Positions 1,024-56,336 of a stretch of 64,000 nt of DNA are shown here, piece by piece (within the stretch, counting starts at the first letter, position 1; each line of letters starts with the position of its first letter). The stretch is from a virus: IMG/VR virus record IMGVR_UViG_3300021256_000006, positions 32,001-96,000 of that record; one strand, written 5' to 3'. A program made the translations under genes and the position numbers. The notes under the pieces are model-generated. The model saw nothing but the letters and a program-made list of their open reading frames with translations, was not told where the DNA came from and ran no database searches.

Positions 1024-1129
1024 ATGAGGAGTTAGGAATTAGGAATTAGGAATTGATACCATGCCATCAGCATAACATTCCATTCCTCATTCCTCATTCC
1101 AAATTCCTAATTGTATCAACTCCTAATTC
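1024..1129 (+). repeat. Element X copy 1: large imperfect hairpin (AGGAATT-repeat arm, ~24-nt conserved core, AATTCCT-repeat arm, TTGTATCAAC)
   Basis: Arms are reverse-complementary heptamer repeats; core gataccatgccatcagcataacat; 1055-1109 matches the reverse complement of 14637-14691 at 53/55 positions. Confidence 0.75.
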
Positions 1130-1140
1130 TTTCAACGATT

Positions 1141-2178
1141 ATGGCTAAAAAGAAAAAACAATTTATCTCCGATTATAGCGCAAAGCGCATCGGAGACCTC
1201 ATAGAGGAAGTATTGAATAATGCGGAAAAGGTGCGGTGGCAAAAGCCGTGGCTTGATGTGGCAAGTGTGGAAACGCCTTGCCGCAACATTGATAGACCAG
1301 ACCCTTATCAAGGGGTTAATGCCGGACTCCTTCAGCTCGTAATGAGCGTGAAAGGCTACCGCACTCCATTGTTTGTGACTGGGGATAAAGCTCGTGACAT
1401 GGGGCTTTCTATCAAGAAGCAAGACAATGGCGACCGAGAGGAAGCATGGCCCGTGTTCAAGTGGCTCCATCTTATCTACGACAAAGATGGCAACCGCATC
1501 ACCTACGAGCAGTATTGCGACCTCGACGAAGAAGAGCAGCAGCAATGCCGAGAGCGTTGGTCACTCCGTGGCTATCTCGTCTATAACATTGACCAGACCA
1601 CTATGAAGGAAGATCTGCCAAACACTTATGCTAAATTCCTGGCCCTCTATCCTGAGGAAAAGGAGGTGCGCACCATGAAGGCAGAGGAAGACACCGTTGA
1701 CGAGGCATTGGACTATGTGCTTTCCACAGAGGGTGCATGGAGATGCCCAATTCATCATTCAATTAGCCACAAGGCTTATTATTCACCTGCCGAGGATGGC
1801 ATTCACCTCCCAATGAGGGAGCAGTTCAAGACAAACTCCGCTTATTATGGCGTGGCGCTTCATGAGATGGCGCACAGCACCAAGGGCGAGAAGAACATGA
1901 AGCGTGACTATGGGAGCAAAGGTTTTGGCTCCGAGGGCTATGCCCTTGAGGAATTGGTGGCAGAGTTCACTTCCGCATTCGTCGGACTTGACCGAGGTCA
2001 CACAAAGACTATCGACCAAGAGCACATCGCCTATGTGCAGAGTTGGCGCAAAGCCATCAAGAAGCACGATGTGGTAAGTACCATTGTTGACGACCTGATG
2101 AAAGCCGTCAATTACGAGATACGCATACTCCGAGAGACAGATACGATGCTTGCCGCTCCAAGCGCAGAGGCAGCATGA
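1141..2178 (+). CDS. ArdC-like antirestriction protein (ssDNA-binding N-domain plus zincin metallopeptidase C-domain)
   Basis: ORF 1111-2178 trimmed to the first ATG (GATTATGGCT). N-terminal motifs QKPW and PYQGVNAGLL; C-terminal HEMAHS (HExxH) and EELVAEF, as in the ArdC/DUF1738 family. Ends in -EAA. Confidence 0.7.
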   Translation: MAKKKKQFISDYSAKRIGDLIEEVLNNAEKVRWQKPWLDVASVETPCRNIDRPDPYQGVNAGLLQLVMSVKGYRTPLFVTGDKARDMGLSIKKQDNGDREEAWPVFKWLHLIYDKDGNRITYEQYCDLDEEEQQQCRERWSLRGYLVYNIDQTTMKEDLPNTYAKFLALYPEEKEVRTMKAEEDTVDEALDYVLSTEGAWRCPIHHSISHKAYYSPAEDGIHLPMREQFKTNSAYYGVALHEMAHSTKGEKNMKRDYGSKGFGSEGYALEELVAEFTSAFVGLDRGHTKTIDQEHIAYVQSWRKAIKKHDVVSTIVDDLMKAVNYEIRILRETDTMLAAPSAEAA

Positions 2179-2309: not shown

Positions 2310-2816
2310 ATGGCAAATCTTATGAACGGCACACTCTCTGCCATACTCAAGCAATCGCTTGACGAGAGAGCAAAAACGGATGCAGACTTTGCATCCAAGT
2401 ATAAAACAAAAAAAATCGAAGACTGCGTGTCTGCCATCTATGCTGCATTGGAAAGCATGGCAAGGAAAGCGGTCAGCGGTTCTGGTGGTGCTGCCGCCTG
2501 TGGTAGTGACGACCTGCTTGTCTCTGCCGCTGTCCATTGGTATGATGAGGAAAAACCCACGACCGAAAGCGTCGTGGCAATCCTCGAAGGTGGTACGGAA
2601 ATCATCAAGCAGAACAAACCGACGAAGCAAGCCAAGACTGCCGACGCCAAACCAACCGCAAAGCCCGCACCAACTGCCAAGCCAGCCGCAAAGCCAGCAC
2701 CGACACCAAAGCCAACTCCCAAGCCGATTCCGAAGATGGAGATTGTCAAGCCATCTGCAGCACCTATGACAGACGATGATGACGATGACGACGATGACAT
2801 TGATTTGTTCAGCTAA
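2310..2816 (+). CDS. PcfK-like protein (AcrIIA9-family candidate) with (A/T)KP-repeat linker and poly-Asp tail
   Basis: N-terminal AKTDADFASKY..IEDC..AAVHWYDEE matches PcfK-like proteins as I recall them. Sits immediately upstream of a PcfJ-like gene. C-terminus is AKPTAKPAPTAKPAAKPAPTPKPTPKP followed by DDDDDDDDD. Confidence 0.6.
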   Translation: MANLMNGTLSAILKQSLDERAKTDADFASKYKTKKIEDCVSAIYAALESMARKAVSGSGGAAACGSDDLLVSAAVHWYDEEKPTTESVVAILEGGTEIIKQNKPTKQAKTADAKPTAKPAPTAKPAAKPAPTPKPTPKPIPKMEIVKPSAAPMTDDDDDDDDDIDLFS

Positions 2817-3067: not shown

Positions 3068-3082
3068 TTGGAGGACAAAACT

Positions 3083-4441
3083 ATGACGGAAATCGAACAC
3101 ATCAACGCATTGTTGGAGAAAAACACTCCGACATTTGGCGAAAGCGATATGATGGGTATCGCTTGTGACATTGAAGCAGATTTGGATTGGAACTATTATC
3201 CGGATAATGACGCAGAGGTGGCCATTGCCACTCATGCAGACGACTATCAAATAATAACCAACCATGTCATGTATATGTTACAGAAAGTCCACTGGAAAGA
3301 CCTTGACGGTGTGGAGCATGATGGAGAATATGACGAATGGGAAGACTATTATAGCTCGCTTAGTGATGTTGAGCGAGATAATTACGACAACGGATACGAT
3401 GACTTGTTCGATTATTATATGAAAGTCGAAGACGAGGGGGCGTATCGTCAATATTGGTACAATGTCAAGACTGGTGCTTGCTTTGTTCGTGACAGGCTTC
3501 TCGATCATCCAAAATATGGTACTATCAATAATGTCGAAGGAGAGTGGACGCCTCTGAAGGCTATCAAGCCATGCGAGGCGATAGATGAAGCCTATTACAA
3601 GGTTGATTTCAGCATCCATCCTCTTCTCGAAGAGAGAGGCTATGAATGTTTTTCCGCTCAGGAATACAACGATGCCACCGACCCAACAAACGACCATATC
3701 ATTGAGAATCGGATGCAGTTCTTCGATGGCATGAGAACAAATCCACAGTTGTGTTCGGTCATCCGTTACGGAGGATTGAAGATGCTTGGGCTTGTGTCTG
3801 GCGAACACCGTGAGCAATACATTACTGCCGTTAAGATTGCCAACCGACATCGCTATATGCCAGCCGACAAAGGAATGTGGATGGATTACCTTCACGACCT
3901 CATCGAATTGGGCAAAGACCTTCACAATCCATTTTATGTATGCCCCGAAGATTTGAGGGCTGCACATGAGAAATACCACCGCCTCTATGTTAGAGAAATG
4001 GAGAAGAGAGAAAAGGAAAGACGATTGCAGGAACTTATTGCCCGTTCCAAGCCCTATGCACAACGCATTGCTCCATTCCTTTCTCTTGCCTGGCACACCG
4101 ACCAGTATGCCGTGTTTGTCTGCCCATCGGTGGAAGATATGGTGGAGGAAGGACAGAAGATGCACCACTGCGTAGGCATTATGGGCTACGACAAGAAGCC
4201 CGACTCCCTCATCCTCTTCTGCCGCACTCCACAAGGAGAGCGTATCAGCACGATTGAGTACAGCATCAGTCGTGGCAAGGTGTTGCAAAACCGAGCCGCC
4301 TGCAACAAAGTTCCCCTCTATCTTGACGAGGTGAACAAGATGCTTGAAAAGGATGCAGAGCGCATCAGGTCTTGCAAACTTATCAGCATCAACAAAAACA
4401 AAGTTCAACCAGCAGCCGAGGCAATCGCCTTGGCTGCATAA
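3083..4441 (+). CDS. PcfJ-like protein
   Basis: ORF 3068 (TTG) trimmed to ATG 3083. C-terminal GKDLHNPFYVCPEDLRAAHEKY ... EEGQKMHHCVG ... KPDSLILF resembles the Bacteroides PcfJ-like family. Ends in -ALAA. Confidence 0.65.
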   Translation: MTEIEHINALLEKNTPTFGESDMMGIACDIEADLDWNYYPDNDAEVAIATHADDYQIITNHVMYMLQKVHWKDLDGVEHDGEYDEWEDYYSSLSDVERDNYDNGYDDLFDYYMKVEDEGAYRQYWYNVKTGACFVRDRLLDHPKYGTINNVEGEWTPLKAIKPCEAIDEAYYKVDFSIHPLLEERGYECFSAQEYNDATDPTNDHIIENRMQFFDGMRTNPQLCSVIRYGGLKMLGLVSGEHREQYITAVKIANRHRYMPADKGMWMDYLHDLIELGKDLHNPFYVCPEDLRAAHEKYHRLYVREMEKREKERRLQELIARSKPYAQRIAPFLSLAWHTDQYAVFVCPSVEDMVEEGQKMHHCVGIMGYDKKPDSLILFCRTPQGERISTIEYSISRGKVLQNRAACNKVPLYLDEVNKMLEKDAERIRSCKLISINKNKVQPAAEAIALAA

Positions 4442-5168: not shown

Positions 5169-5705
5169 ATGGATAAAGAAATGAGAAAAAGACTCGAAAA
5201 GTTTGGTCGAGTTGAGGAAGATTCAAAAACTTGGGTGCATCCTTGGGAAACCTATTGGAGATTGTATTGCAAGAAACATCACGGCTTACTTGTAAAGATT
5301 CTTAGCAAGATGTACCCAGACTACACATTTTCACTGGGTGAGAGCCATATTTGCGGAACGATTTTCCAAGTAATCATAATAAACAAAAAAGGAATGACTA
5401 TGGCAAAGAAAAAAATATGGCTTGTCACACAAGAAAGCAATGTGGACGGAGAAATAACATTCAATGTGACGCCTTGCAAGGATTTAGGTACAGCCATCCG
5501 AACAATGAAGAAGGAAATAGACACAATCCTGGACGAGTCGCAAAAGTACAAGGATGCCCGCAGATGGATGGAAGGTGACGACACACTCAACTACGACGAT
5601 TGCCCCTTTGTATGGGAAAATGAAAACCATGACTCGTGGTATCTTAAAGTCATTAACGATGACTACTACGAAGACTTACGAATTGAAGAAAAGGAAATAA
5701 TTTAG
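5169..5705 (+). CDS. Hypothetical protein (178 aa; alternative start at 5400)
   Basis: ORF track; internal GACTATGGCAAAG context at 5397-5408 would give a 101-aa product. Confidence 0.5.
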   Translation: MDKEMRKRLEKFGRVEEDSKTWVHPWETYWRLYCKKHHGLLVKILSKMYPDYTFSLGESHICGTIFQVIIINKKGMTMAKKKIWLVTQESNVDGEITFNVTPCKDLGTAIRTMKKEIDTILDESQKYKDARRWMEGDDTLNYDDCPFVWENENHDSWYLKVINDDYYEDLRIEEKEII

Positions 5706-6739: not shown

Positions 6740-7354
6740 ATGGAAAAGACAATTATTCAGCAGTTCAATGAACTGAAAGAGAAGCACCCAACGGCAATCC
6801 TCCTGTTCCGGTGTGGCGACTTCTACGTAACCTACGAGGATGATGCTCAAATCTGTGCAAACGTGTTGGGCATCACCCTTACCAAACGAACAAGCGACGG
6901 CACTCGCACGGCAGGTTTTCCTTACCATGCTCTTGACACATATCTTCCCAAATTGGTACGATACGTGAATCAACCCGAAAGCATTATGAAACGTATCGCT
7001 ATCTGTGACCAGTTGGAAGACCCACAGACCCAAAAACTTGTGAAGCGAGGCAGTAACGAATTAACCAAACAAGGAGGACTAACAATGAAACTTTTCCACG
7101 ATGTAGGCATTAACGAGCCTTGCCGTGACATCAAAGTCAACGGCAGAAAAATCATGGCAAACGTGTGGGGAGGGCAGACGGAAGTCACCCTCACCACATG
7201 GAGCGAAATCCGACGACTGGGGTTCAAGAAAAGAGAGCGAGCCTTCGGCAACCTTAACGACGGAACTCCCGCACTCTACTTTCAAGCATGGGACGAACAA
7301 AACAATAACCACTGGTTTCTCACCACAGAGAAACTTGAAGAGCTGGAGGACTGA
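6740..7354 (+). CDS. Orphan MutS domain-I (mismatch-binding N-terminal domain) protein with an unknown C-terminal domain
   Basis: [32 protein letters not shown]...LGITLTKR...[16 protein letters not shown]...[10 protein letters not shown] aligns by eye to E. coli MutS residues ~12-115. No connector, core or ATPase domains present. Confidence 0.75.
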
Positions 7355-7510: not shown

Positions 7511-8611
7511 ATGGAAACTATGACAGCAAACGGAGTGACTTACTACCAAGATTGGGAAAAGTCAGAGGGTCACATCTATATGGTAAAGCCCAAGACCATC
7601 AATCGCTACATAAAAATTAAAGAAGAGCATCCACGAGAAGAAGCCTACGGTGTGTTTTTTGCTTTCAGCAAGGAACAGTTTCAGGAAGGCTACAAATCGC
7701 TGGTGCGACGTGGTTACATCAAGGATGGCGACAAGATAACACCCGGTGCTATGGGCATCTATGGCACCGCTGATGAAATAGCACGATTCTTCGATTTCTA
7801 CAATGAACGAGACAAGCGCATCGCTAAGGAGTGCGACCCACAAGAGGTGTATTTCTACGAGTGGAACAACCACGAATGTATGTTTGGCGATGATGACGAT
7901 GTGGTGAAACTCATTGCAGACTACTTCGGCAAGGAAGCAGCCCACAAAATTCATCGGGTGGGAGGTGGAAGGGACATCAACATTCTTGTTCCAATTACCG
8001 AACGAGACCACCACCTGCAAGCCCATGAGCATGACATCCTGCTTCTCTCACGGCTGAAGTATGACTGCGAAGGATTCCTCAGCGAAGGTGACTGCCGACA
8101 CGCCAGACCCAGTGACCTGTGGGCAAAGGATTTGAAAATGCAGATAAAAAAGATGCGAGAGTTGTTAGGAGGACTGCCCGATGACATCAAGGGAGAATCG
8201 CCAGTTACCGAGTCTGACATTGACGACTACGAGAAGAGGATGGTTGACGAACTCTGCAAGGAATTTTCCAAACCCAAATACAATCCTGCACCTGATACAA
8301 CATTTGACGAGTACCACAACGCAGAAATCAATGACGTAGATTTATATTACCAAGACGATGACGGGAAATGGCAACGACCTACCAATGTGTGGTTTTCCAA
8401 TGATTCCAGACGCTGGCATCTCAATGATGCCAACACACACGGCAGAGCATTCACATCCTACCTTGGCAAGCATGGCACCACGTTGGCTCCAGTCTATTAC
8501 ATGAGTTGGGGGTCATTGACGAGAAGGCCCTACGTCAACCAGAGATTCTGCAACGTCACCGCCCGCTACGACCATGAATCCGAACGACTTTACGATTTTT
8601 ACAGAGAATAG
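7511..8611 (+). CDS. Hypothetical protein (366 aa)
   Basis: ORF track; CAACTATGGAA start context; no family recognised. Confidence 0.55.
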   Translation: METMTANGVTYYQDWEKSEGHIYMVKPKTINRYIKIKEEHPREEAYGVFFAFSKEQFQEGYKSLVRRGYIKDGDKITPGAMGIYGTADEIARFFDFYNERDKRIAKECDPQEVYFYEWNNHECMFGDDDDVVKLIADYFGKEAAHKIHRVGGGRDINILVPITERDHHLQAHEHDILLLSRLKYDCEGFLSEGDCRHARPSDLWAKDLKMQIKKMRELLGGLPDDIKGESPVTESDIDDYEKRMVDELCKEFSKPKYNPAPDTTFDEYHNAEINDVDLYYQDDDGKWQRPTNVWFSNDSRRWHLNDANTHGRAFTSYLGKHGTTLAPVYYMSWGSLTRRPYVNQRFCNVTARYDHESERLYDFYRE

Positions 8612-8638: not shown

Positions 8639-9529
8639 ATGGCAAAAGATTTTATCAAACAATGGGATGGCAGACGGCTTGAAGATTGGGGAAGTGTAGT
8701 TTCCAAGGAGTTCAACCAATTCCAAAACGCTTTCAAGCGTGAGGTGGAACGTCTGGCACAAGAGGGTGGGGCAAAGCTGGTGAGTTATAGCAAAGGGCAT
8801 TACGATATGAGCGGTTTCATAGAAAAGGATGGAATCTATGTGTATTTCAGCTATGGAGCACTTGACCGCACCAAAGTGCAACTCACATCTGCATCCGACT
8901 TTATCTCTCCACTCTTGATGCGAACGGCCAAGCATGAAAAGGATTTTAGTGGAGGGTCAAACAACCATATCCTCTTCACACAGTTCCTGCCCACCATGCA
9001 ACGACTGTTTAAGCAACAGCAACCAAGTGTAGTCACTACACAACCCGAACCTGTAAAGGAGGTGAAACCAAGTGTAGTCACCCCACAAAAGAGTTTAGAC
9101 CGACGCATCTATGACAAGCTGCTGGAATTGGCTCAATGGGAATTTGAACAGAATATGGAACTTGTCGGGCTTCCCGTTACAATGACAGAAGCCACTTTCA
9201 CACTGTATGAACTGACGCATGATAAACATTCCAAATATGGGCCATTTACCTTTGTGGAAAAAGACCGATGGAAAAAATTTCATATTGAAGAAGACAACTT
9301 TAAGTGTAACTTTTTATCAAGTGAAGTGTTTGCAATAGCCTATAAGTTTGAAAATCTTTGCAACATCAAACCTAAAGACAAGGCTCGTTTCCATTACGAG
9401 AAAATGAAGAAACCGGCAACGCCACTTGTCAAACAATCTTTGACAACTGAAGCCATGTGGCTCCATTATGCTAACCTCTTCTTCCTTTTCTTCAACTTTA
9501 ACCAAGCAGAGGCACAACAAGCTGCCTAA
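8639..9529 (+). CDS. Hypothetical protein (296 aa)
   Basis: ORF track; ACAACTATGGCAAAA start. C-terminus WLHYANLFFLFFNFNQAEAQQAA is paralogous to 10876-10945. Ends in -QAA. Confidence 0.55.
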   Translation: MAKDFIKQWDGRRLEDWGSVVSKEFNQFQNAFKREVERLAQEGGAKLVSYSKGHYDMSGFIEKDGIYVYFSYGALDRTKVQLTSASDFISPLLMRTAKHEKDFSGGSNNHILFTQFLPTMQRLFKQQQPSVVTTQPEPVKEVKPSVVTPQKSLDRRIYDKLLELAQWEFEQNMELVGLPVTMTEATFTLYELTHDKHSKYGPFTFVEKDRWKKFHIEEDNFKCNFLSSEVFAIAYKFENLCNIKPKDKARFHYEKMKKPATPLVKQSLTTEAMWLHYANLFFLFFNFNQAEAQQAA

Positions 9530-9606
9530 CCCCCAGGGTGTGTGAGTGTAGCAAATATCTCACACATCCACTAATTTCAAATTCATCATCTAAATCATCA
9601 ACAATT

Positions 9607-12600
9607 ATGGCAACAAAACTACAAAGGCTTCGCGACAACATCGAAGCCATCAGGCACGCCCTGACATCCCCGCATTACGATGCCGACATCATGAACAAGT
9701 ACACGGGATTTGGCGGCATGACTTTTCTCCTCAACAACTTGGAGAAGAAATCATGGAGCAAGACTGACAAGCCCTGCTATGACGACACCGTGAAACTGCG
9801 CCAGCTGCTGCATGACAAGAGCGAGAACGAGAAACAATACGAGGCATGGATACAGAGTCTGAAGGCAAGCACATCTACCGCCTACTACACACCAAGGGAG
9901 ATTCCTCAAACGCTCTTCGACAATCTCTACCACATGGCAAAAGGTTGGTACGACAGCAACATCTATCCCAAAAAGGTGCTTGACCCATCAGCAGGAACTG
10001 GAGTCTTCATGTGCTCTGTCCTCCAAGCCTCTCTGGATTCCGGCAACATCCCTAAGCAAGTGGGCTACGAACTTGACCTACTCACAGGAACTATCCTCAA
10101 ACAAAGACTCCTGGGGCATGACATCCGCATCAAGGGTTTTGAGACCATCCCGAATGAAGACCTCGGCACATTCGACCTCGTGACCACCAATGTTCCCTTC
10201 GGCAACATCAACGTGTTTGACCCTCTCTACACCAATAGCAAGGAGCAAGTGAAAAGGGATGCAGCAAAGATGATCCACCGCTACTATGTGCTGAAAGGTC
10301 TTGATTGCCTCCGCAATGGAGGAGTGCTTGCCTACATCATCACCAGCAACTACATCAACCGTGACAACGACCAATTGGCAGAAGCGCTGAAGCACGCCAA
10401 CCTCGTCACCGCCATCCGATTTCCGAACAACCTCTTCAAGGAGGCGGGAACAGAAGTAGGGACCGACCTTCTCATACTCCAGAAGGACGAGCACAAGCAA
10501 GCTCTCACAGAAGACGAGCAGCAACTCCTCACACCTATGGAAATGGACGATTGCCCAACCAACCTCTACTTCAACAATCATCCCGACCACATCATTGCCA
10601 CCTCCACCGAGATAGGCACCGACCCCTACGGAAAGCCTGGCTATATCTACTACCACAAAGACGGAGTGCAAGGCGTAGCCGCAGACATGGGCCGCTTGCT
10701 CAAAGCGGAATTGCCAAACATTGACAAGTCTGCCTTTCAAAAGGGCCCCTCACTCTCTCCATCTTCCTCCCTTGCAGTCAGCGGTTCCCCCGCTGACACC
10801 ACTTCCCCCGCTCCCACCGCCAAGCATCCCATTCCTAATTCCTCATTCCTCATTCCTAATTCCGAACCCCTCTTCTTCCACTATGCCAACAAGTTTTTCC
10901 TCTTCTTCACCTTTGCACCAAGCAAGCATCAAGCACCTGCAAGCAAAGAACAGAAACTGAAAAACTTGCACAAGTTATACACCGACCTCTACAATTACGA
11001 GGCAAGCTATCAGAACGAGGACGAAGAAGGGCGCTGCAAGTTGAATGCTTCTTATGATTTGTTCGTCAGGTCTTACGGTTTCCTGAACGATTCCAAGAAT
11101 GCTTCTCTTGCCAAGCGTTTAGGCATTACCGACTTGCTTGCCATTGAGCGTTACGAGAATGGCACATGGGTAAAGGCAGACATCATGCTGGCACCCGTCG
11201 CCTTCTCCACCGACGAGGAACCGAAAGCGAGCTCACCCCAAGAGGCATTGGCAGCATCGCTGAATAAATACGGAAAGCCCAATATTGATTATATGCTCTC
11301 CATCACCACCTGTACCCGTGACCAACTTCTCAGCGAACTGCATGACGAGGTGTTCCTCAACCCCATCAACGGGCAATACGAAGTCAGGGCAAAGTTCCTC
11401 AGCGGAAATGTGATTGAGAAGATTGATGCAATCGAAAAACTTTCAGCTTCTCAACTGTCAACTGCGACCTGTCAACTTTCGCTGAAGGCTCTCAAGTCTG
11501 TCATCCCCGCTCCCATTCCTTTTGAGGAACTTGACTTCAACCTTGGCGAGCGCTGGATTGACTGCAAGGTGTATGAGCGCTTCGCCAACGACTTCTTCTC
11601 CATGCCTGGCAACACTCCCGACATCGAGGTGCGCTACAATCCTCTCCTCGACCAGTATGCAGCAGGTCTCAGGAAATGGGACTGGAATGAGAAGATACGC
11701 ACTCAGTACGCGGTCAAGAGTGAAGCATCCAAGACGCTTGACGGACTTGAAATATTCACTCATGCCCTGCATAATACAATACCCAAGTTGATGAAGTATC
11801 AACGAGACAAGGAAGGGCGCATCATGACGGACGAGAACTACGATAAAATTAAAATAGAGGACTCGGAGAATATGCAGTTGGCAGCAACCAAGATTGAAGA
11901 AATCAGACAGGCATTTGAGGAGTGGCTACGCCGACAGCCAAGGGAGTTCAGGGATGATTTGGCCAGCGTATACAACCATCGCTTCAACTGCTTTGTCAAG
12001 CCTAAATATGACGGTAGCCATCAGACATTCCCGGACCTCAACATGAAAGGGCTGAAAGAAAAGTATGGCATTGACCACATCTACGACAGCCAAAAGGATT
12101 GCGTCTGGATGCTCTTGCTGAATGGTGGTGGCATCTGCGACCACGAGGTAGGAAGCGGAAAGACACTCATCATGTGTATTGCAGCCCACGAGATGAAACG
12201 TCTCGGACTGTGCCACAAGCCAATGATAATAGGCATGAAGGCCAACGTGAGTGCCATAGCAGAAACATATCGGACAGCATATCCCAATGCTCGCATCCTC
12301 TTCGCTACAGAGGCTGACTACTCGGCAAGCAACCGTATGGCGTTCTTCAACAACGCCAAAAACAACGACTATGACTGCATCATCATGAGCCACGACCAGT
12401 TCGGACGTATTCCACAGAGCGAAAAAATACAGCTCGACATCATGTGCGACGAACTGCGACAGGTAGAAGACAGTCTGACAGCAATGGAGGATTGGGGCTA
12501 CAAAGTGACTTCAAAAATGCTCCGTGGATTGGAGATTAGAAAGCGCAACCTTCACGCAAAAATCATGAACCTCCGCAATTCTATCAATTCGAGGAAGGAT

Positions 12601-14628
12601 GATATTGTGGACTTCGAGAGGCTGGGCATTGACCACATCTTCATTGACGAGAGCCACCAGTTCAAGAACCTCGGCTTTGTGACACGGCATGACCGCGTGG
12701 CTGGCATTGGCAACACACAGGGCAGCAAGCGTGCTTTCAATCTGTTGATGGCCATCCGCACCATACAGAACCGCACAGGGCGTGACCTCGGTGCCACCTT
12801 CCTCAGTGGCACCACCGTTACTAATTCCCTCACAGAACTGTTCCTTCTCTTCAAGTATCTCCGGCCCAATGCACTTCGCAAACAAGCCATCACTTGCTTC
12901 GATGCTTGGGCTGCTATATTCACGAAGAAGAGCACGGAGTTCGAGTTCAATGTCACCAACTGCATCGTTCAGAAGGAGCGCTTCCGTTACTTTATCAAGG
13001 TGCCGGAACTCGCCATGTTCTACAACGAGATTACAGACTTCCGAACGGCAGAGGATGTCGGCATCGAACGACCCCAAAAGCATGCAAGACTGCTGAACAT
13101 AAAGCCGACACCGGACCAAGAGGGCTTCATTGAGCGTCTGATGAAGTTTGCGCAGGGAGGTTCCCCTTCCCTGATATTCCGTGAAAGCCTTTCCGACAAC
13201 GAGGAAAAGGCGCGTATGCTTATCTGTACCGACCTCGCTCGAAAGATGTCTCTGGATATGCGGCTGATTGACCCTCGCTTTGGTGATCATCCATCCAACA
13301 AGGCAAGCCAATGCGCCAACCTCGTCAAGAAGTATTATGATGAATATGACGACCAACGTGGCACACAGCTCATCTTCTCCGACATATCCACATGGCAAAA
13401 CAATACCGATTGGAGTGTGTACAGCGAAATCAAGCGAAAGCTGATGGACATGGGCATACCTGGCAGCGAAATCAGGTTCATTCAGGAGTGTAAGAACGAC
13501 CACCAAAAACAATTGCTCATTGAGCAGGTCAACCTCGGATATGTGCGTGTCCTCTTTGGCTCCACATCCATGCTGGGTACCGGAGTGAACCTCCAGCAGC
13601 GAGTGGTGGCCGTGCATCACCTCGACACACCGTGGCGACCTTCCGACCTCGAACAGAGAGACGGACGGGCCATCCGGAAAGGAAACGAAGTGGCACGGCT
13701 CTATGCCAACAACCAAGTAGATGTTATCATCTATGCTGTTGAACGCTCGTTGGACTCTTACAAGTTCAATCTCCTGCACCTCAAACAAACCTTCATCAAC
13801 CAACTCAAACGAGGACAACTCGGAGTGAGAACGATTGACGAGGGCAGCATGGACGAGAACGGCATGAACTTCTCGGAGTACATGGCTATTCTTTCCGGCA
13901 ACACCGACTTGCTGGAACGTGCCAAACTGGAGAAGCGCATTGCCATGCTGGAGGCCGAACGCAAGAACTTCTACCGTGACCAGCGAGAACAAGAGGAAAA
14001 AATGGAAACGCTGAAAAAGGATAACGAGCTCTACAAAAATCACCTTGCAGACGCCCAAGCCGACTTTGCCAAGTTCAACAAAGCAAGGCGCCTCGATGAA
14101 GAGGGCAATGTAGTGAACGACCTCCGTCTGGATGGTCTCGCACTCAGCGGTTCCCCCGCTGAGATACAAACCCTCCTCGGCAACCACCTCATCAAAATTG
14201 CCAACACCGCCAGAACACAAGATGCCCACCTTCCCATCGGCTCCATCTATGGATTCAAGGTGCTGGTCAAGACGGTGGAGACAGCAACGATGGACGGCAA
14301 TCCGCAGTACGCTAATATGTTCTTTGTCAGCAGCGACACACTCATGTATTCTTACAATAATGGCTACATCAATCGCAACTCTCCCAAGGCATCAGCACTC
14401 TACCCGCTGAACGCCTTGCAGCGCATCCCGGAAATCATCACTGGGTGGATGGAGAAAATCGAAAGCAACGAGAACAGCATCAAGCAGATTGCATCTATCC
14501 TTTCCGCAACGACTGAATGGTCAAAGGAGGACCGTTTGAAGCAGCTGAAGAATGACCTCAAACTTCTTGACAAGAAGATTGAGGAAGACATGAAGAAAAA
14601 GGACGAGCCCACCAAGAAAGCAGCCTAA
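9607..14628 (+). CDS. N6-adenine DNA methyltransferase / SNF2-family helicase fusion (P1 DarB-like architecture), 1673 aa
   Basis: Trimmed to ATG 9607 (ACAATTATGGCAACA). MTase motifs VLDPSAGTGVF and TNVPFG; helicase motifs GSGKT, DESHQFKN, LSGTTVTN, GTGVNLQ, QRDGRAIRKGN; coiled-coil C-terminus. Ends in -KAA. Confidence 0.85.
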   Translation: MATKLQRLRDNIEAIRHALTSPHYDADIMNKYTGFGGMTFLLNNLEKKSWSKTDKPCYDDTVKLRQLLHDKSENEKQYEAWIQSLKASTSTAYYTPREIPQTLFDNLYHMAKGWYDSNIYPKKVLDPSAGTGVFMCSVLQASLDSGNIPKQVGYELDLLTGTILKQRLLGHDIRIKGFETIPNEDLGTFDLVTTNVPFGNINVFDPLYTNSKEQVKRDAAKMIHRYYVLKGLDCLRNGGVLAYIITSNYINRDNDQLAEALKHANLVTAIRFPNNLFKEAGTEVGTDLLILQKDEHKQALTEDEQQLLTPMEMDDCPTNLYFNNHPDHIIATSTEIGTDPYGKPGYIYYHKDGVQGVAADMGRLLKAELPNIDKSAFQKGPSLSPSSSLAVSGSPADTTSPAPTAKHPIPNSSFLIPNSEPLFFHYANKFFLFFTFAPSKHQAPASKEQKLKNLHKLYTDLYNYEASYQNEDEEGRCKLNASYDLFVRSYGFLNDSKNASLAKRLGITDLLAIERYENGTWVKADIMLAPVAFSTDEEPKASSPQEALAASLNKYGKPNIDYMLSITTCTRDQLLSELHDEVFLNPINGQYEVRAKFLSGNVIEKIDAIEKLSASQLSTATCQLSLKALKSVIPAPIPFEELDFNLGERWIDCKVYERFANDFFSMPGNTPDIEVRYNPLLDQYAAGLRKWDWNEKIRTQYAVKSEASKTLDGLEIFTHALHNTIPKLMKYQRDKEGRIMTDENYDKIKIEDSENMQLAATKIEEIRQAFEEWLRRQPREFRDDLASVYNHRFNCFVKPKYDGSHQTFPDLNMKGLKEKYGIDHIYDSQKDCVWMLLLNGGGICDHEVGSGKTLIMCIAAHEMKRLGLCHKPMIIGMKANVSAIAETYRTAYPNARILFATEADYSASNRMAFFNNAKNNDYDCIIMSHDQFGRIPQSEKIQLDIMCDELRQVEDSLTAMEDWGYKVTSKMLRGLEIRKRNLHAKIMNLRNSINSRKDDIVDFERLGIDHIFIDESHQFKNLGFVTRHDRVAGIGNTQGSKRAFNLLMAIRTIQNRTGRDLGATFLSGTTVTNSLTELFLLFKYLRPNALRKQAITCFDAWAAIFTKKSTEFEFNVTNCIVQKERFRYFIKVPELAMFYNEITDFRTAEDVGIERPQKHARLLNIKPTPDQEGFIERLMKFAQGGSPSLIFRESLSDNEEKARMLICTDLARKMSLDMRLIDPRFGDHPSNKASQCANLVKKYYDEYDDQRGTQLIFSDISTWQNNTDWSVYSEIKRKLMDMGIPGSEIRFIQECKNDHQKQLLIEQVNLGYVRVLFGSTSMLGTGVNLQQRVVAVHHLDTPWRPSDLEQRDGRAIRKGNEVARLYANNQVDVIIYAVERSLDSYKFNLLHLKQTFINQLKRGQLGVRTIDEGSMDENGMNFSEYMAILSGNTDLLERAKLEKRIAMLEAERKNFYRDQREQEEKMETLKKDNELYKNHLADAQADFAKFNKARRLDEEGNVVNDLRLDGLALSGSPAEIQTLLGNHLIKIANTARTQDAHLPIGSIYGFKVLVKTVETATMDGNPQYANMFFVSSDTLMYSYNNGYINRNSPKASALYPLNALQRIPEIITGWMEKIESNENSIKQIASILSATTEWSKEDRLKQLKNDLKLLDKKIEEDMKKKDEPTKKAA
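10741..10945 (+). repeat. Intergenic-type repeat module embedded in-frame between the MTase and helicase halves
   Basis: Contains a hairpin copy (10777-10797), TTCCTMA heptamers (10829-10862), a CACCTTTGCACC box and a ~70-nt paralog of 9459-9529. Confidence 0.7.
10777..10797 (+). repeat. GC hairpin family copy (inside ORF, translated as SGSPA)
   Basis: cttgca GTCAGCGG-TTCCC-CCGCTGAC. Confidence 0.8.
14144..14162 (+). repeat. GC hairpin family copy (inside ORF, translated as SGSPA)
   Basis: ctcgcac TCAGCGG-TTCCC-CCGCTGA. Confidence 0.8.
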
Positions 14629-45128: not shown

Positions 45129-47018
45129 ATGACTAAAGAAATAAGACCATTGCAGCGGTATAATGCGAATACCGAACAGACAGAAATTTTCTATCCTGCC
45201 ACAACGACCGACGCGATTGCGCACCCCACAAAAAGAAAGTCGCTAACAAACGTGATTTCTGACATAGAAGCAAGTATTGCCGACATCGAGACGATTGCCG
45301 AGGGCTATGTGCGTGTGGCTGGTTCGTCAAGTCCTGCTCTCTCTTACAAGTCATACAAGTATCACGAACAGGGCGGCTTCGGACGTGAATCTGTGTTCTC
45401 GCTGTTCTACCCCTGTCTGGTGGGAACACCGCTGACAGGCAGTGGCACAGAAGGCAAGGTGCTTCATGTGCTTCAGAAGTTCGGTGCAAGAACTATCGAC
45501 GGAAGCCCGAAATGGCTTGACATCTACGGAACACCTCATGCCATCGACGGCTCGGAGGGTGACGTGCTGATTGTGAACATTGAACCATTTTACAGCATCA
45601 ACGGCAAGCACACAATCGAGGGCACGGAGTATGATGTATTCCTGATGTCGCGCTCACCATTCACCTGGCAGGGCATCGAGGCAGAGCACATGGAGAAGTT
45701 CGGATGGAGCCCTGACTACTGCGTGAGCCATACGGACACCGACAACGTGGTGCGTATGCACTCAGTTTATAACCCTGCGTGGAACGGATCATACCAAGCA
45801 CCTCAAGGCGTGACTGGCAAGTACGTCTATACCACCGACCCTGAGACGGGCGACATTGTGGAAACCTATGATGCAAACGAGACACTGCTGGGTGGTGCAG
45901 GTGGCTTGCACTCTACTGACATCGACCTGACTACGGGTGAACAACGAGCCATGAACATGAACGCTGACCCGACGAAGACCGTGCCATGGATGAACCAGAC
46001 GGCAGAGGGTTGCAACCGACTGATGTCGCTGATACTGGCAGAGGGTGGCACGTTCGATGCGCACAACGCAGCTCGTATGGGTAGTGGTTTCTCATCCAAT
46101 GACCCCGCCACCGCAGCAGGCGACTGGGAACAGGCGGGCAGCGGTGCGAAGAACGGTTTGCGCGTGAAGGACAAGAACGACGCATGGAAGTACTACGGAA
46201 TGAACGGCAACGTCCGCTTCCTGACGGGTGCAACGTCGGGTGCGGTGTATGCTGCCAACGTTATCAACTCTTGGCGAAATCCGTGGCACATTCTGGAGGC
46301 GCACCGTGCGATGTCGTATGCTATTGAGAACGACGTGCACGAGCTGGAGTGGTTTGTGTTCGAGGGCAACAAGTACAAGTACCGCAGCGTGCAAGGCTTC
46401 AACGGTCCGAGTCACGGAGAAATGACCTGTGTGGTGTGGAAGCTCATGGCAACACAGGCTGGTGCCAATGCCATCGACCCGACAGACAACGCAACGAGCA
46501 TCGCAGGCAATCGCGTGGAAATACTCGTCAGCACAGCACTCGTTCACGGCATGACTACGCAGGTATCACCTTCGTGGTGGACTTCAGGACTGCTGTTCAC
46601 GGAAGATGAGAGCGGACAGTATGAGTGCTTCATTGAGCGCGACCAGGCAGAACTGGTGAAGGGCATTGCCGCTGACAATTACGACCCAGCAACACCACGA
46701 AACTTCGAGACTATCTACGATCATGTGCTCACCGTACAGAAGGGCGAAGGCTACGCTAAGAACTATCTGAACGGAGCGCTGATGCTGCCTGATACCAATG
46801 CCAACAAGACTGGGGCAGGCTTGCATACCTATGTTGGCAAATACAACTGGTTTACGGGTAGCAATGCAAGTGCTGGGAAGCGGTCGGTCCGTGGCTTCCG
46901 GCGCGGCGCCCTCGCTAACTACGCGGTCCTGTCTCCGTTGGCGCTGAACGCTTACTACTCGCCCTCGGGCGCGGGCACGGGCCTCGGCTTCGGCACCTGT
47001 TGTCGCATAGCGGAATAG
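45129..47018 (+). CDS. DGR target protein (fibre-like, 629 aa) with a C-terminal variable region
   Basis: The last ~45 codons (RSVRGFRRGALANYAVLSPLALNAYYSPSGAGTGLGFGT...) are the VR homologous to the TR at 47252. Confidence 0.85.
   Translation: MTKEIRPLQRYNANTEQTEIFYPATTTDAIAHPTKRKSLTNVISDIEASIADIETIAEGYVRVAGSSSPALSYKSYKYHEQGGFGRESVFSLFYPCLVGTPLTGSGTEGKVLHVLQKFGARTIDGSPKWLDIYGTPHAIDGSEGDVLIVNIEPFYSINGKHTIEGTEYDVFLMSRSPFTWQGIEAEHMEKFGWSPDYCVSHTDTDNVVRMHSVYNPAWNGSYQAPQGVTGKYVYTTDPETGDIVETYDANETLLGGAGGLHSTDIDLTTGEQRAMNMNADPTKTVPWMNQTAEGCNRLMSLILAEGGTFDAHNAARMGSGFSSNDPATAAGDWEQAGSGAKNGLRVKDKNDAWKYYGMNGNVRFLTGATSGAVYAANVINSWRNPWHILEAHRAMSYAIENDVHELEWFVFEGNKYKYRSVQGFNGPSHGEMTCVVWKLMATQAGANAIDPTDNATSIAGNRVEILVSTALVHGMTTQVSPSWWTSGLLFTEDESGQYECFIERDQAELVKGIAADNYDPATPRNFETIYDHVLTVQKGEGYAKNYLNGALMLPDTNANKTGAGLHTYVGKYNWFTGSNASAGKRSVRGFRRGALANYAVLSPLALNAYYSPSGAGTGLGFGTCCRIAE
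46880..46999 (+). repeat. DGR variable region (VR); may extend to ~47015
   Basis: Ungapped 120-nt match to 47252-47371 with 21 mismatches, all at TR adenines. Confidence 0.85.
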
Positions 47019-47062
47019 AAAACGTAAACCCCGCGAGCAAGGCGAGCGCGAAAACGAAAACT

Positions 47063-47079
47063 GCGCGGCTGAGCCGCGC
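47063..47079. promoter_or_regulatory. GC-rich hairpin/cruciform downstream of the VR (candidate DGR target-recognition element)
   Basis: GCGCGGC-TGA-GCCGCGC, perfect 7-bp stem, 45 nt after the stop. Confidence 0.4.
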
Positions 47080-47108
47080 CCGCTGAGCAATAGCGAAGGC
47101 TATAATAC

Positions 47109-47127
47109 TGCCGCAAGGCGGCATTTT
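47109..47127 (+). terminator. Weak terminator-like hairpin
   Basis: TGCCGC-AAG-GCGGCA followed by TTTT. Confidence 0.3.
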
Positions 47128-47251
47128 GCCCGAATAGTGTGGAGATGTGGTGCGACATCGTTGAAGCAAAAATCCATGCCACCGACCAAAGCGCACAAGG
47201 GAATCGGAGTACCCGTCAGGTGGTGAGGTTGAAATAAGGCGGCTGCACTGT

Positions 47252-47371
47252 ACGGTCGGTCCGTGGCTTCCGGCGCGGCAACAACGCTAACAACACGAAC
47301 CTGTCTCCGTTGACGATGAACGCTAACAACTCGCCCTCGAACGCGAACACGAACATCGGCTTCGGCAACTG
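47252..47371 (+). repeat. DGR template repeat (TR)
   Basis: In the target frame it carries 12 AAC codons (..GNNANNTNLSPLTMNANNSPSNANTNIGFGN*); non-coding context. Confidence 0.85.
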
Positions 47372-47575
47372 AAACGCAGTAACGAAATACATAAGCCCTC
47401 CAATGCTTGACCTGAGCATGAAGAGGCAGGTGCAGAGCCTCGCTGACGAAGAGAGCGGAACAACGCAGGAAAAGGTGCTAAGACCACCAGCCGACCGCGC
47501 AAGAATGAGCGAAGGAAAGGGTAGGCTGCAAGGCGTTCAAAAACCTTGCTATCGGCGCAACAGGTCATAAAGCGT

Positions 47576-47592
47576 TCAGCGGTTCCCCCGCT
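47576..47592 (+). repeat. GC hairpin family copy in the DGR TR-RT spacer
   Basis: aagcgtt CAGCGG-TTCCC-CCGCTG aaaaac, 20 nt before the RT ATG. Confidence 0.85.
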
Positions 47593-47612
47593 GAAAAACA
47601 AAGAAAAGAACA

Positions 47613-48941
47613 ATGGGGACATCCACATGGAACAACATCACCACCGGCCTTCACGCTGCTGTATATGACAGCTACATGGCCAAGAGCTCACGCCAACGCG
47701 CCAAGCGTGAGGTGGTGGAGGTCATGGCAGATGTGGACGGGTTCTGCCAACGGAAGCAGGCAGAGCTGGCAAGCGGCAGCTACCATGTGGGTGACTATCG
47801 TCACTTCCAGTTGAAGGACAAGAAGAAGGAGCGTAGCATCTCTGTACTGCCCTATGAAGACCGCTGCGTGCAGAATGCTATCAAGGATGCCATAGAGCCG
47901 CTATTGCTCCGTCAGATGACCGACGACATGATGGGAGGTCTGCCTGGTTGCGGCGTGCTGGCAAGCGACAAGCGGCACCAGGTGGTGGCACGGATGCGGG
48001 TGATGCTGAACGACCGCTCGCTGAGGTATTGCTTGCAAGGTGACATCGAGAAGTTCTACGACCATGTGGATAATGTCATCAGTATGCGGCTCATTGAGAA
48101 GCAGGTGAAAGACAAGCGCACAAGGGCGGTTATCCGTCAACACCTCTTCAACCAGAAGCGGCTCGCTATTGGTGATCCATTCAGTCACCTTATCGCCAAT
48201 CTCAATACGTCGGTCATTATTCGCAAGGCAAAGGAGTTGTACGGCAATAGCATCAAGGTGGTCAATTTTGCCGACGACTTCATAGCCTTCAGCAGAGACA
48301 AGACAATCCTCAATGCCCTGCGGAAAGATATGAAGATATGGGCAAAGGCGATGCGGTTGCATTACAAGCCGATGTACGTGCGTCCCATAGACCCGCAACC
48401 AGGAAAGGAATACAACCCTATTATCTTCTGCGGCTACAAGTGCGGGCGTGGTTATGTTCACCTCACCCCGCGCACTAAGAAACGATACGTCAAGACCCGA
48501 CACAAGGAACGCAGTATTGGCTCCTATCAGGGCATTATCGGCGTGGCTGACACGAAACATCTGAGACTAAAAGTACAAATTAACGATAACAAAACTATGA
48601 GCGAGAAAATCAGGCGACCATTTGCAGGACGCCCCATGAAGATAGAAACGATGGAAGGTATCAACCACACCATTGTGGACTTTCAGAAACGCAGCAGCAA
48701 TCAGAAGGACTGCGACAGTTACTATCACATCCAGGCACTTGCCGACGGGCTGGGGCTAATAGTCTATTCGACGGGCGCACAGAAAATCTGCAAGTATCTC
48801 GACACCAAGAGAAGGACGGACATCCCATTGCGTGACATGAAGATAGTGCACGACTGGAGTGGATTCTACTACGATGGCACCGTATATACCGATGCCGAGG
48901 AAGAGGAAATGATTCGCAAACAATTTAACATATCGAAATAA
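47613..48941 (+). CDS. DGR-type reverse transcriptase
   Basis: 442 aa; RT blocks SISVLPYEDRCVQ, LQGDIEKFYDHV, IGDPFSHLIANL (DGR-like I/LGxxxS box), NFADDFIAF (YxDD-type). Confidence 0.9.
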   Translation: MGTSTWNNITTGLHAAVYDSYMAKSSRQRAKREVVEVMADVDGFCQRKQAELASGSYHVGDYRHFQLKDKKKERSISVLPYEDRCVQNAIKDAIEPLLLRQMTDDMMGGLPGCGVLASDKRHQVVARMRVMLNDRSLRYCLQGDIEKFYDHVDNVISMRLIEKQVKDKRTRAVIRQHLFNQKRLAIGDPFSHLIANLNTSVIIRKAKELYGNSIKVVNFADDFIAFSRDKTILNALRKDMKIWAKAMRLHYKPMYVRPIDPQPGKEYNPIIFCGYKCGRGYVHLTPRTKKRYVKTRHKERSIGSYQGIIGVADTKHLRLKVQINDNKTMSEKIRRPFAGRPMKIETMEGINHTIVDFQKRSSNQKDCDSYYHIQALADGLGLIVYSTGAQKICKYLDTKRRTDIPLRDMKIVHDWSGFYYDGTVYTDAEEEEMIRKQFNISK

Positions 48942-55574: not shown

Positions 55575-56336
55575 ATGGCAAAAACTATCGCAATCCTCAA
55601 CTTCAAGGGTGGGGTAGGGAAGACGACCACAGCCATCAACCTGGCCGCAGCCCTGCATAACCACAAAAAGAAAGTCCTTGTAATCGACATTGACTTCCAG
55701 TGTAACGCATCTTCCACATTAGGGTACAGACCCAAGGACGGAGACAGCATCTACGAGTTGTTTACGGTCAAAGACATCAAGTCTCTTCCTCTCTATGAAC
55801 GGGAAAAAGGTTTTGACTTTATCCCTTCGTCCATGAACATGAAGAACTTCAATGAAATCATGTCTTCACGGAACCGACGTGAGTACATCCTAAAGAAGCT
55901 CGTCGATATGGTGCGTGACAATTATGATTTCATCTTTATTGATTGCCCGCCTAACGGTGGCCTCTTGAATACAAATGCAATGTGTGCAGCGGACTCTATC
56001 ATCATCCCTCTTGATTGTGAGCCGTATTCCCTGCAGGGAGTTATCACCATCTTGGATGAAATCAAATCCATACAGGAGGATGAGGTGAATCCTGACATCA
56101 ATATCCTTGGTTTTCTCCTTACTCGCTACGACTCTGTGCTGTCTATCCATAAGGAAGCAGCCAGCATGATGCGTGACCGCTATCCCGGGAAAGTCTTTAA
56201 CGCAAAGATACGAAAGAACACAGCGCTCTCCAAAGCATCAGCACAGGGAAAGACCATCTTCGAGTATGCACCTGACTCTGCCGGAGCCGCCGATTACGAC
56301 CAACTGGCCCGCGAAATCCTCAAAGCAAAGAAATAA
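55575..56336 (+). CDS. parA: ParA/Soj-family partition ATPase
   Basis: Deviant Walker A LNFKGGVGKTTTAINLA; IFIDCPP; 253 aa. Confidence 0.9.
   Translation: MAKTIAILNFKGGVGKTTTAINLAAALHNHKKKVLVIDIDFQCNASSTLGYRPKDGDSIYELFTVKDIKSLPLYEREKGFDFIPSSMNMKNFNEIMSSRNRREYILKKLVDMVRDNYDFIFIDCPPNGGLLNTNAMCAADSIIIPLDCEPYSLQGVITILDEIKSIQEDEVNPDINILGFLLTRYDSVLSIHKEAASMMRDRYPGKVFNAKIRKNTALSKASAQGKTIFEYAPDSAGAADYDQLAREILKAKK

Follow-up and report, generated by a model that had tools for sequence, protein, structure and literature searches.

The MutS-I-bearing reading frame at the centre of this study, which lies in the first part of the window (the whole 64,000-nucleotide stretch of phage DNA analysed), encodes a real MutS mismatch-binding domain of a known kind, and the two features that had made it look special, its long C-terminal tail and a valine in its mismatch-reading motif, are recent changes at the level of the strain (Table 1). 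Pfam MutS_I (PF01624) matches residues 5-115 of the 204-residue ORF (E 2.2e-25; 89.5 bits against a gathering cut-off of 20.6) and covers positions 3-110 of the 113 in the profile, i.e. the whole domain. E. coli MutS domain I matches the ORF at E 2e-17, its residues 13-103 aligning such that Phe28 falls on Phe36 and Val30 on Glu38. The first-pass annotation, which had read the N-terminal ~115 residues as MutS domain I with the mismatch-stacking Phe retained and the clamp, core and ATPase domains absent, is borne out by this alignment and by the profile search, which sees MutS_I alone. By sequence the domain belongs to the same family as domain I of E. coli MutS (1E3M; Glu38 mutants 1WB9, 1WBB and 1WBD), but the window protein differs from that enzyme in having no connector, core, clamp or ATPase domain anywhere in the 204 residues, in the Val at the Glu38 position and in a 7-residue insertion seen in the MutS-I of this phage lineage; it is not a MutS1 repair protein. 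A chance match to MutS_I was rejected, as was a truncated host mutS, the latter on phage context and purifying selection. Folded without an alignment, the 204-residue ORF gave a pLDDT of only 34, and a promoter scan was at chance level (21 versus 18.9 +/- 4.9).

The virus record is complete (99,953 bp, with a tape measure gene and a large terminase) and holds this single MutS_I match. Identity of the window domain is 55-59% to chromosomal MutS of Bacteroidales and 38-44% to MutS of Bacillus and Salmonella; from this closer identity we infer a Bacteroidales host for the gut-type phage, and the phage domain appears to derive from a host-type MutS. Elsewhere the genome carries a 41-nt intergenic repeat with a CAGCGG...CCGCTG hairpin in 14 copies (window 14909, 20163, 27086, 31480, 37600, 54312, 55284 and others), many scattered 7-nt tandem units, and a ParA-family ATPase at window 55575-56336 that suggests a plasmid-like prophage state.

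Table 1. Features of the MutS-I locus, its anti-defence cluster and the DGR cassette, in window coordinates.
Feature	Position	Strand	Remarks
ArdC-N + MPTase zincin (anti-restriction) gene	1111..2178	+	same cluster
PcfK-like gene	2310..2816	+	
PcfJ-like gene	3068..4441	+	
MutS-I-bearing ORF	6740-7354	+	204 aa as fused
Ancestral MutS domain I gene of 110 codons (no domain beyond the mismatch-binding one)	6740..7069	+	Phe28 kept, Glu30 to Val
Codon 30, GTA (Val)	6827..6829	+	Glu in 10/10 ortholog loci; GAA in all three with a DNA alignment
Lost stop codon, CAA	7070..7072	+	TAA in L006, TAG in L007; creates the 204-aa read-through; common to L008
AGGAGG ribosome-binding site and ATG of downstream gene	7072..7087	+	retained, in frame with the fusion
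Separate 89-aa gene, no known family	7085..7354	+	modelled with confidence as a small domain, mainly beta
DUF7659 + LPD11 (large polyvalent protein domain 11) gene	7511..8611	+	
N6-adenine methyltransferase + SNF2-type helicase fusion	9538..14628	+	
DGR cassette (target, VR, TR, RT)	45129..48941	+	no avd
DGR target gene	45129-47018	+	contains VR 46881-46999
TR	47253-47371	+	order target-TR-RT
RT	47613-48941	+	DGR reverse transcriptase

The tail had been taken for ~90 unrelated residues of one protein; it is instead a second gene, joined on by loss of a stop codon. In L006, a near-identical locus, MutS-I stops after 110 codons (TAA) and is followed by the same AGGAGG and ATG, making two separate products of 110 and 89 residues, and a single change, TAA to CAA at 7070, fuses the two in the window, a recent event at the strain level. 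In the window genome, translation of the 89-residue protein probably still begins at its own ATG as well. This part has 16 free-standing short homologues and matched no family in Pfam, and its fold, predicted with confidence (pLDDT 92), has no clear match in the PDB (Foldseek best E 0.2; VIA best Z 3.5), a result that does not establish a new fold. The family has conserved Trp, Arg and Phe, with homologues within the ArdC clusters of L007, L309 and L310, and the 89-residue gene of L009 and L010 was rejected as a homologue of the window tail. By eye, the second half of a 178-residue ORF at window 5169-5705 resembles that gene of L009 (10261-10530), so that this cluster may hold another fusion made by read-through. 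Another relative has MutS-I fused to a different, 64-residue neighbour, which also stands alone (P0002, P0124). Under the strict definition of a polyvalent protein (2-15 conflict domains per polypeptide) the window ORF reaches two, by way of the recent stop loss and with a second domain of no known family, and we do not class it as a polyvalent protein proper.

The valine arises from an A to T change at 6828 and leaves the Phe-X-Glu mismatch-reading motif of the window protein incomplete. All ten ortholog loci (some of them near-duplicates) have FYE, including L006 and also L008, which bears the same fusion, and FYE is present in 115 of 117 parsed homologues, a set chosen by similarity beyond which diverged copies lacking the motif exist. 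The earlier statement that the discriminating Glu is Val holds for the window allele and does not extend to the family, and loss of the Glu at family level was rejected. Other copies also vary, with FYV in L061, FYR in L001 and FYQ in P0076. Val30 recurs in a second assembly (P0001, an ENA assembly protein with one other residue different) and is for that reason probably a genuine allele, a sequencing artefact being rejected; the change is nearly private, recent and strain-level. E. coli MutS contacts the mismatched base through Phe36, which stacks on it, and through Glu38, which hydrogen-bonds to it, and replacing Glu38 by Gln abolishes discrimination (review, PMC3848065); because of this latter effect, DNA binding by the Val30 allele is probably less selective for mismatches. 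The MutS-I family is under purifying selection, with dN/dS of 0.04-0.18 (about 0.1) over 95 codons among family orthologs; the value for the window against L006 is 0.05, and against L008 the window domain shows three amino-acid differences, two of them at conserved positions (E30V, M57T).

The neighbourhood of the gene indicates the company in which it moves. The ArdC-N, MPTase, LPD and methylase-helicase modules are encoded by separate genes on one strand within 1.1-14.6 kb, the last of them (9538..14628) being what we take, by its architecture, to be a DarB-like protein. ArdC lies at most 4 kb from MutS-I in 27 of 77 viral loci with MutS-I outside MutS (ArdC being sometimes apparently in the same polypeptide), compared with 3 of 80 PcfJ control loci. 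In relatives the frame of the cluster is kept with its small genes shuffled, one or two MutS-I copies and varied fusion neighbours, and in Bacteroidales plasmids lacking an RT MutS-I either ends an ArdC-type zincin protein or sits inside a giant methylase-helicase protein. The MutS-I gene travels with ArdC, in an ArdC-PcfK-PcfJ-LPD11-methylase/helicase anti-defence cluster, and not with the DGR. A second, diverged MutS-I paralogue of 175 residues with an extra N-terminal domain occurs in relatives (L001:9019-9546, where the motif is FYR, and L303:8915-9442). An Ala-Ala C-terminus, possibly a degron or packaging signal, is found in 11 of 57 MutS-I-containing ORFs of other phages (L016-L095) versus 26 of 526 other long ORFs, a background that includes spurious ORFs (p 3e-4); it ends five genes of the window cluster (55-1017, 1111-2178, 3068-4441, 8639-9529 and 9538-14628) and not the MutS-I protein.

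Searches at E 0.001 return 1,962 short MutS-I homologues, a total that includes pieces of ordinary MutS. In 2017 Iyer et al. reported MutS-I domains within polyvalent proteins that phages and conjugative elements of Bacteroidetes and Firmicutes encode, gave a co-occurrence with ArdC-N of ~80% and proposed, as a hypothesis, recognition of short ssDNA after entry (PMC5512222). The window gene belongs to this mobile-element class, with which it shares an origin from classical MutS and a location outside MutS in a Bacteroidetes mobile element, together with ArdC-N, MPTase, LPD11 and methylase-helicase. Unlike the polyvalent proteins of Iyer et al., however, its modules are separate genes, its MutS-I was ancestrally a solo 110-residue protein, and the only partner of that domain is the unnamed 89-residue one acquired through stop loss. 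A solo MutS-I is also present in the cultured Bacteroides phage B124-14, as the 81-residue ORF064c (YP_005102529.1, 'putative mismatch repair protein'), although this copy is about 37% identical, adjoins antirepressor and replication genes and has the motif DFCE rather than DFYE; no RT is present in the B124-14 genome.

The phage does bear a genuine DGR, as first supposed, in that 20 of 20 differences between TR and VR fall at TR adenines and an RT adjoins them. The RT (47613-48941) has a C-terminal extension of ~110 residues starting at an internal Met, in a cassette without avd, and similar long RTs with a downstream gene of 126-161 residues occur in L219-L222. The first-pass annotation had further proposed a DGR accessory that blocks mismatch repair, calling it undescribed. 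Its premise stands, since mutS deletion in Bacteroides ovatus raises DGR VR mutagenesis 5- to 10-fold (10.1101/2024.11.15.621889); in the Bordetella phage DGR MutS is dispensable. Its novelty does not, as MSL proteins, small MutS-related DGR accessories of 112-283 residues encoded in the cassette and always with avd, are already known (Wu et al. 2018, PMC5758913), and mobile-element MutS-I dates from 2017 (PMC5512222). Like MSL and the Bacteroides Msl (10.1101/2024.11.15.621889), the window gene encodes a small homologue of the mismatch-recognition domain in a DGR-bearing element, and its size is within the MSL range as fused and just under it at the ancestral 110 residues. Unlike MSL it lies 37.8 kb outside the cassette, in a genome where avd (NF033474) has no match at E 1, a search that a very diverged avd could escape, and by both cassette and avd it appears not to be an MSL.

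The proposed link of the gene to DGRs fares no better in comparison across genomes. Among near-complete viruses with MutS-I, 16 of 29 have an RT match and 12 of 29 (about 41%) a TR/VR pair, against 10 and 9 of 25 near-complete PcfJ-bearing viruses without MutS-I; in the co-occurrence test that had been suggested, DGRs are thus not enriched among MutS-I viruses (12/29 vs 9/25; Fisher p 0.78, or 0.42 on adding two probable DGRs). The samples are small and non-independent, contain near-duplicates, have controls picked by PcfJ and come from outside the window phage's own family, and a weak enrichment is possible. The gene is 37.8 kb from the DGR target gene and 40.3 kb from the RT (57.8 kb counting in the opposite direction), and in 18 other viruses with both MutS-I and a DGR the two come no closer than 13.7 kb, with a median of 26 kb. 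One MutS-I subclade (SH-aLRT 94) places complete genomes without an RT (G007, G017) beside genomes with a DGR (G011, G014), in a quick tree of 119 columns where 47 of 86 branches are left open and where the clade of the window has support (99) but no order of events does. No MutS-I was found in the 5 kb around 84 DGR-type RT loci or in the 1.5 kb around 37 more. A DGR link for the MutS-I gene is not supported by these genome comparisons. That the protein is a DGR-specific accessory, which like MSL would protect the cDNA:VR heteroduplex from host MutS, is in our judgement improbable: a genuine DGR in the genome, the 5- to 10-fold cost that host MutS imposes on DGR mutagenesis, the existence of MSL genes and the 41% of MutS-I viruses with a DGR are outweighed by the distances, the missing enrichment, the mixed subclade, the RT-free B124-14 with its solo copy, the RT loci lacking MutS-I and the avd that MSL cassettes carry and this genome does not.

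Wider interference with host repair is a different proposal, in which the domain would act in trans as a decoy, occupying mismatches genome-wide and competing with host MutS, with mutation and recombination between diverged phages raised. The retention of Phe-X-Glu under purifying selection would suit such a role, as would the QLxLxF-like clamp-binding motif that ends 4 of 143 short homologues (host MutS has QLSFF), and other elements do switch mismatch repair off by integration (SpyCI in mutL, PMC3430984; an element in mutS, PMC5296598). The window protein, for which loading onto the beta-clamp had been suggested, was searched for a clamp-binding motif, though, and has none; a monomeric domain without a clamp should also compete poorly with dimeric MutS, and a limited literature search found neither a phage-encoded inhibitor of mismatch repair nor a phage protein inhibitor of MutS. 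We consider the decoy, which is the main rival to the shield favoured below, rather unlikely for these reasons, and are equally doubtful of its general form, that host mismatch repair has natural protein inhibitors in the solo MutS-I of Bacteroidales phages, which would mask heteroduplexes and so raise mutation, diverged-phage recombination and, in phages with a DGR, its output. QLxLxF-like endings occur in P0008, P0011, P0061 and P0097, and L032:10001-10312 ends similarly; a true MutS decoy is best sought among solo MutS-I proteins with such tails. The same tails, with conservation that spans the whole domain surface in MutS-I homologues, might instead suggest that the domain binds a host protein (the sliding clamp, MutL or a MutS partner) and not DNA, but the window lineage has no clamp motif and the invariant columns include the motif that wedges into DNA, which makes such surface mimicry very improbable. 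A reading compatible with any role of the family is that the window allele is weakened or decaying, with stop loss and Glu-to-Val as drift in a dispensable accessory. Two of its three domain differences from L008 lie at conserved positions, E. coli MutS loses discrimination when Glu38 is substituted (PMC3848065), and copy number and neighbours differ among relatives; yet the frame is intact with low dN/dS against L006, more than one assembly carries the Val allele and the motif varies in other copies too, and we regard decay as a minority reading of some weight.

Sequence comparison establishes the identity of the domain, its context, the purifying selection on its family and the recency of both fusion and valine, and for its function we lean, with modest confidence, towards an early DNA-shielding module whose Phe enters distorted or single-stranded phage DNA and caps such sites without signalling. 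On this view the host-type MutS domain I is part of a modular, reshuffled anti-defence cluster in a Bacteroidales phage lineage, which would express it early, wedging the Phe into local distortions (mismatches, bubbles and short single-stranded stretches) of incoming, replicating or recombining phage DNA. As the domain comes without clamp, ATPase or MutL interface it would not signal, and would act only as a passive cap that works alongside ArdC and keeps host nucleases and MutS from surveying these sites; any benefit to the DGR would be a side effect. We count in favour of this shield the MutS_I match, the retained Phe, the low dN/dS, the Bacteroidales-like identity, the ArdC context, the plasmid copies, the varied copies and fusions in the clusters of close relatives, and the ArdC-N co-occurrence of Iyer et al. 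(PMC5512222), whose ssDNA proposal is itself a hypothesis. A lone domain I may bind weakly, because MutS grips DNA by both subunits and several domains (PMC3848065), and the retention of Phe-X-Glu in the parsed homologues suits mismatch reading better than generic coating of ssDNA.

The gene is one more member of a widespread class of mobile-element MutS-I, described computationally in 2017, for which we found no experimental assay in the literature searched. The Glu30 solo ortholog of L006 is the better reagent, with the Val30 allele as a natural control. If true, mismatch masking by a 110-residue protein would offer recombineering and DGR engineering a small tool and would reveal a new route by which phages tune the fidelity of their hosts. 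The locus also illustrates how polyvalent-type fusions arise through single stop losses.
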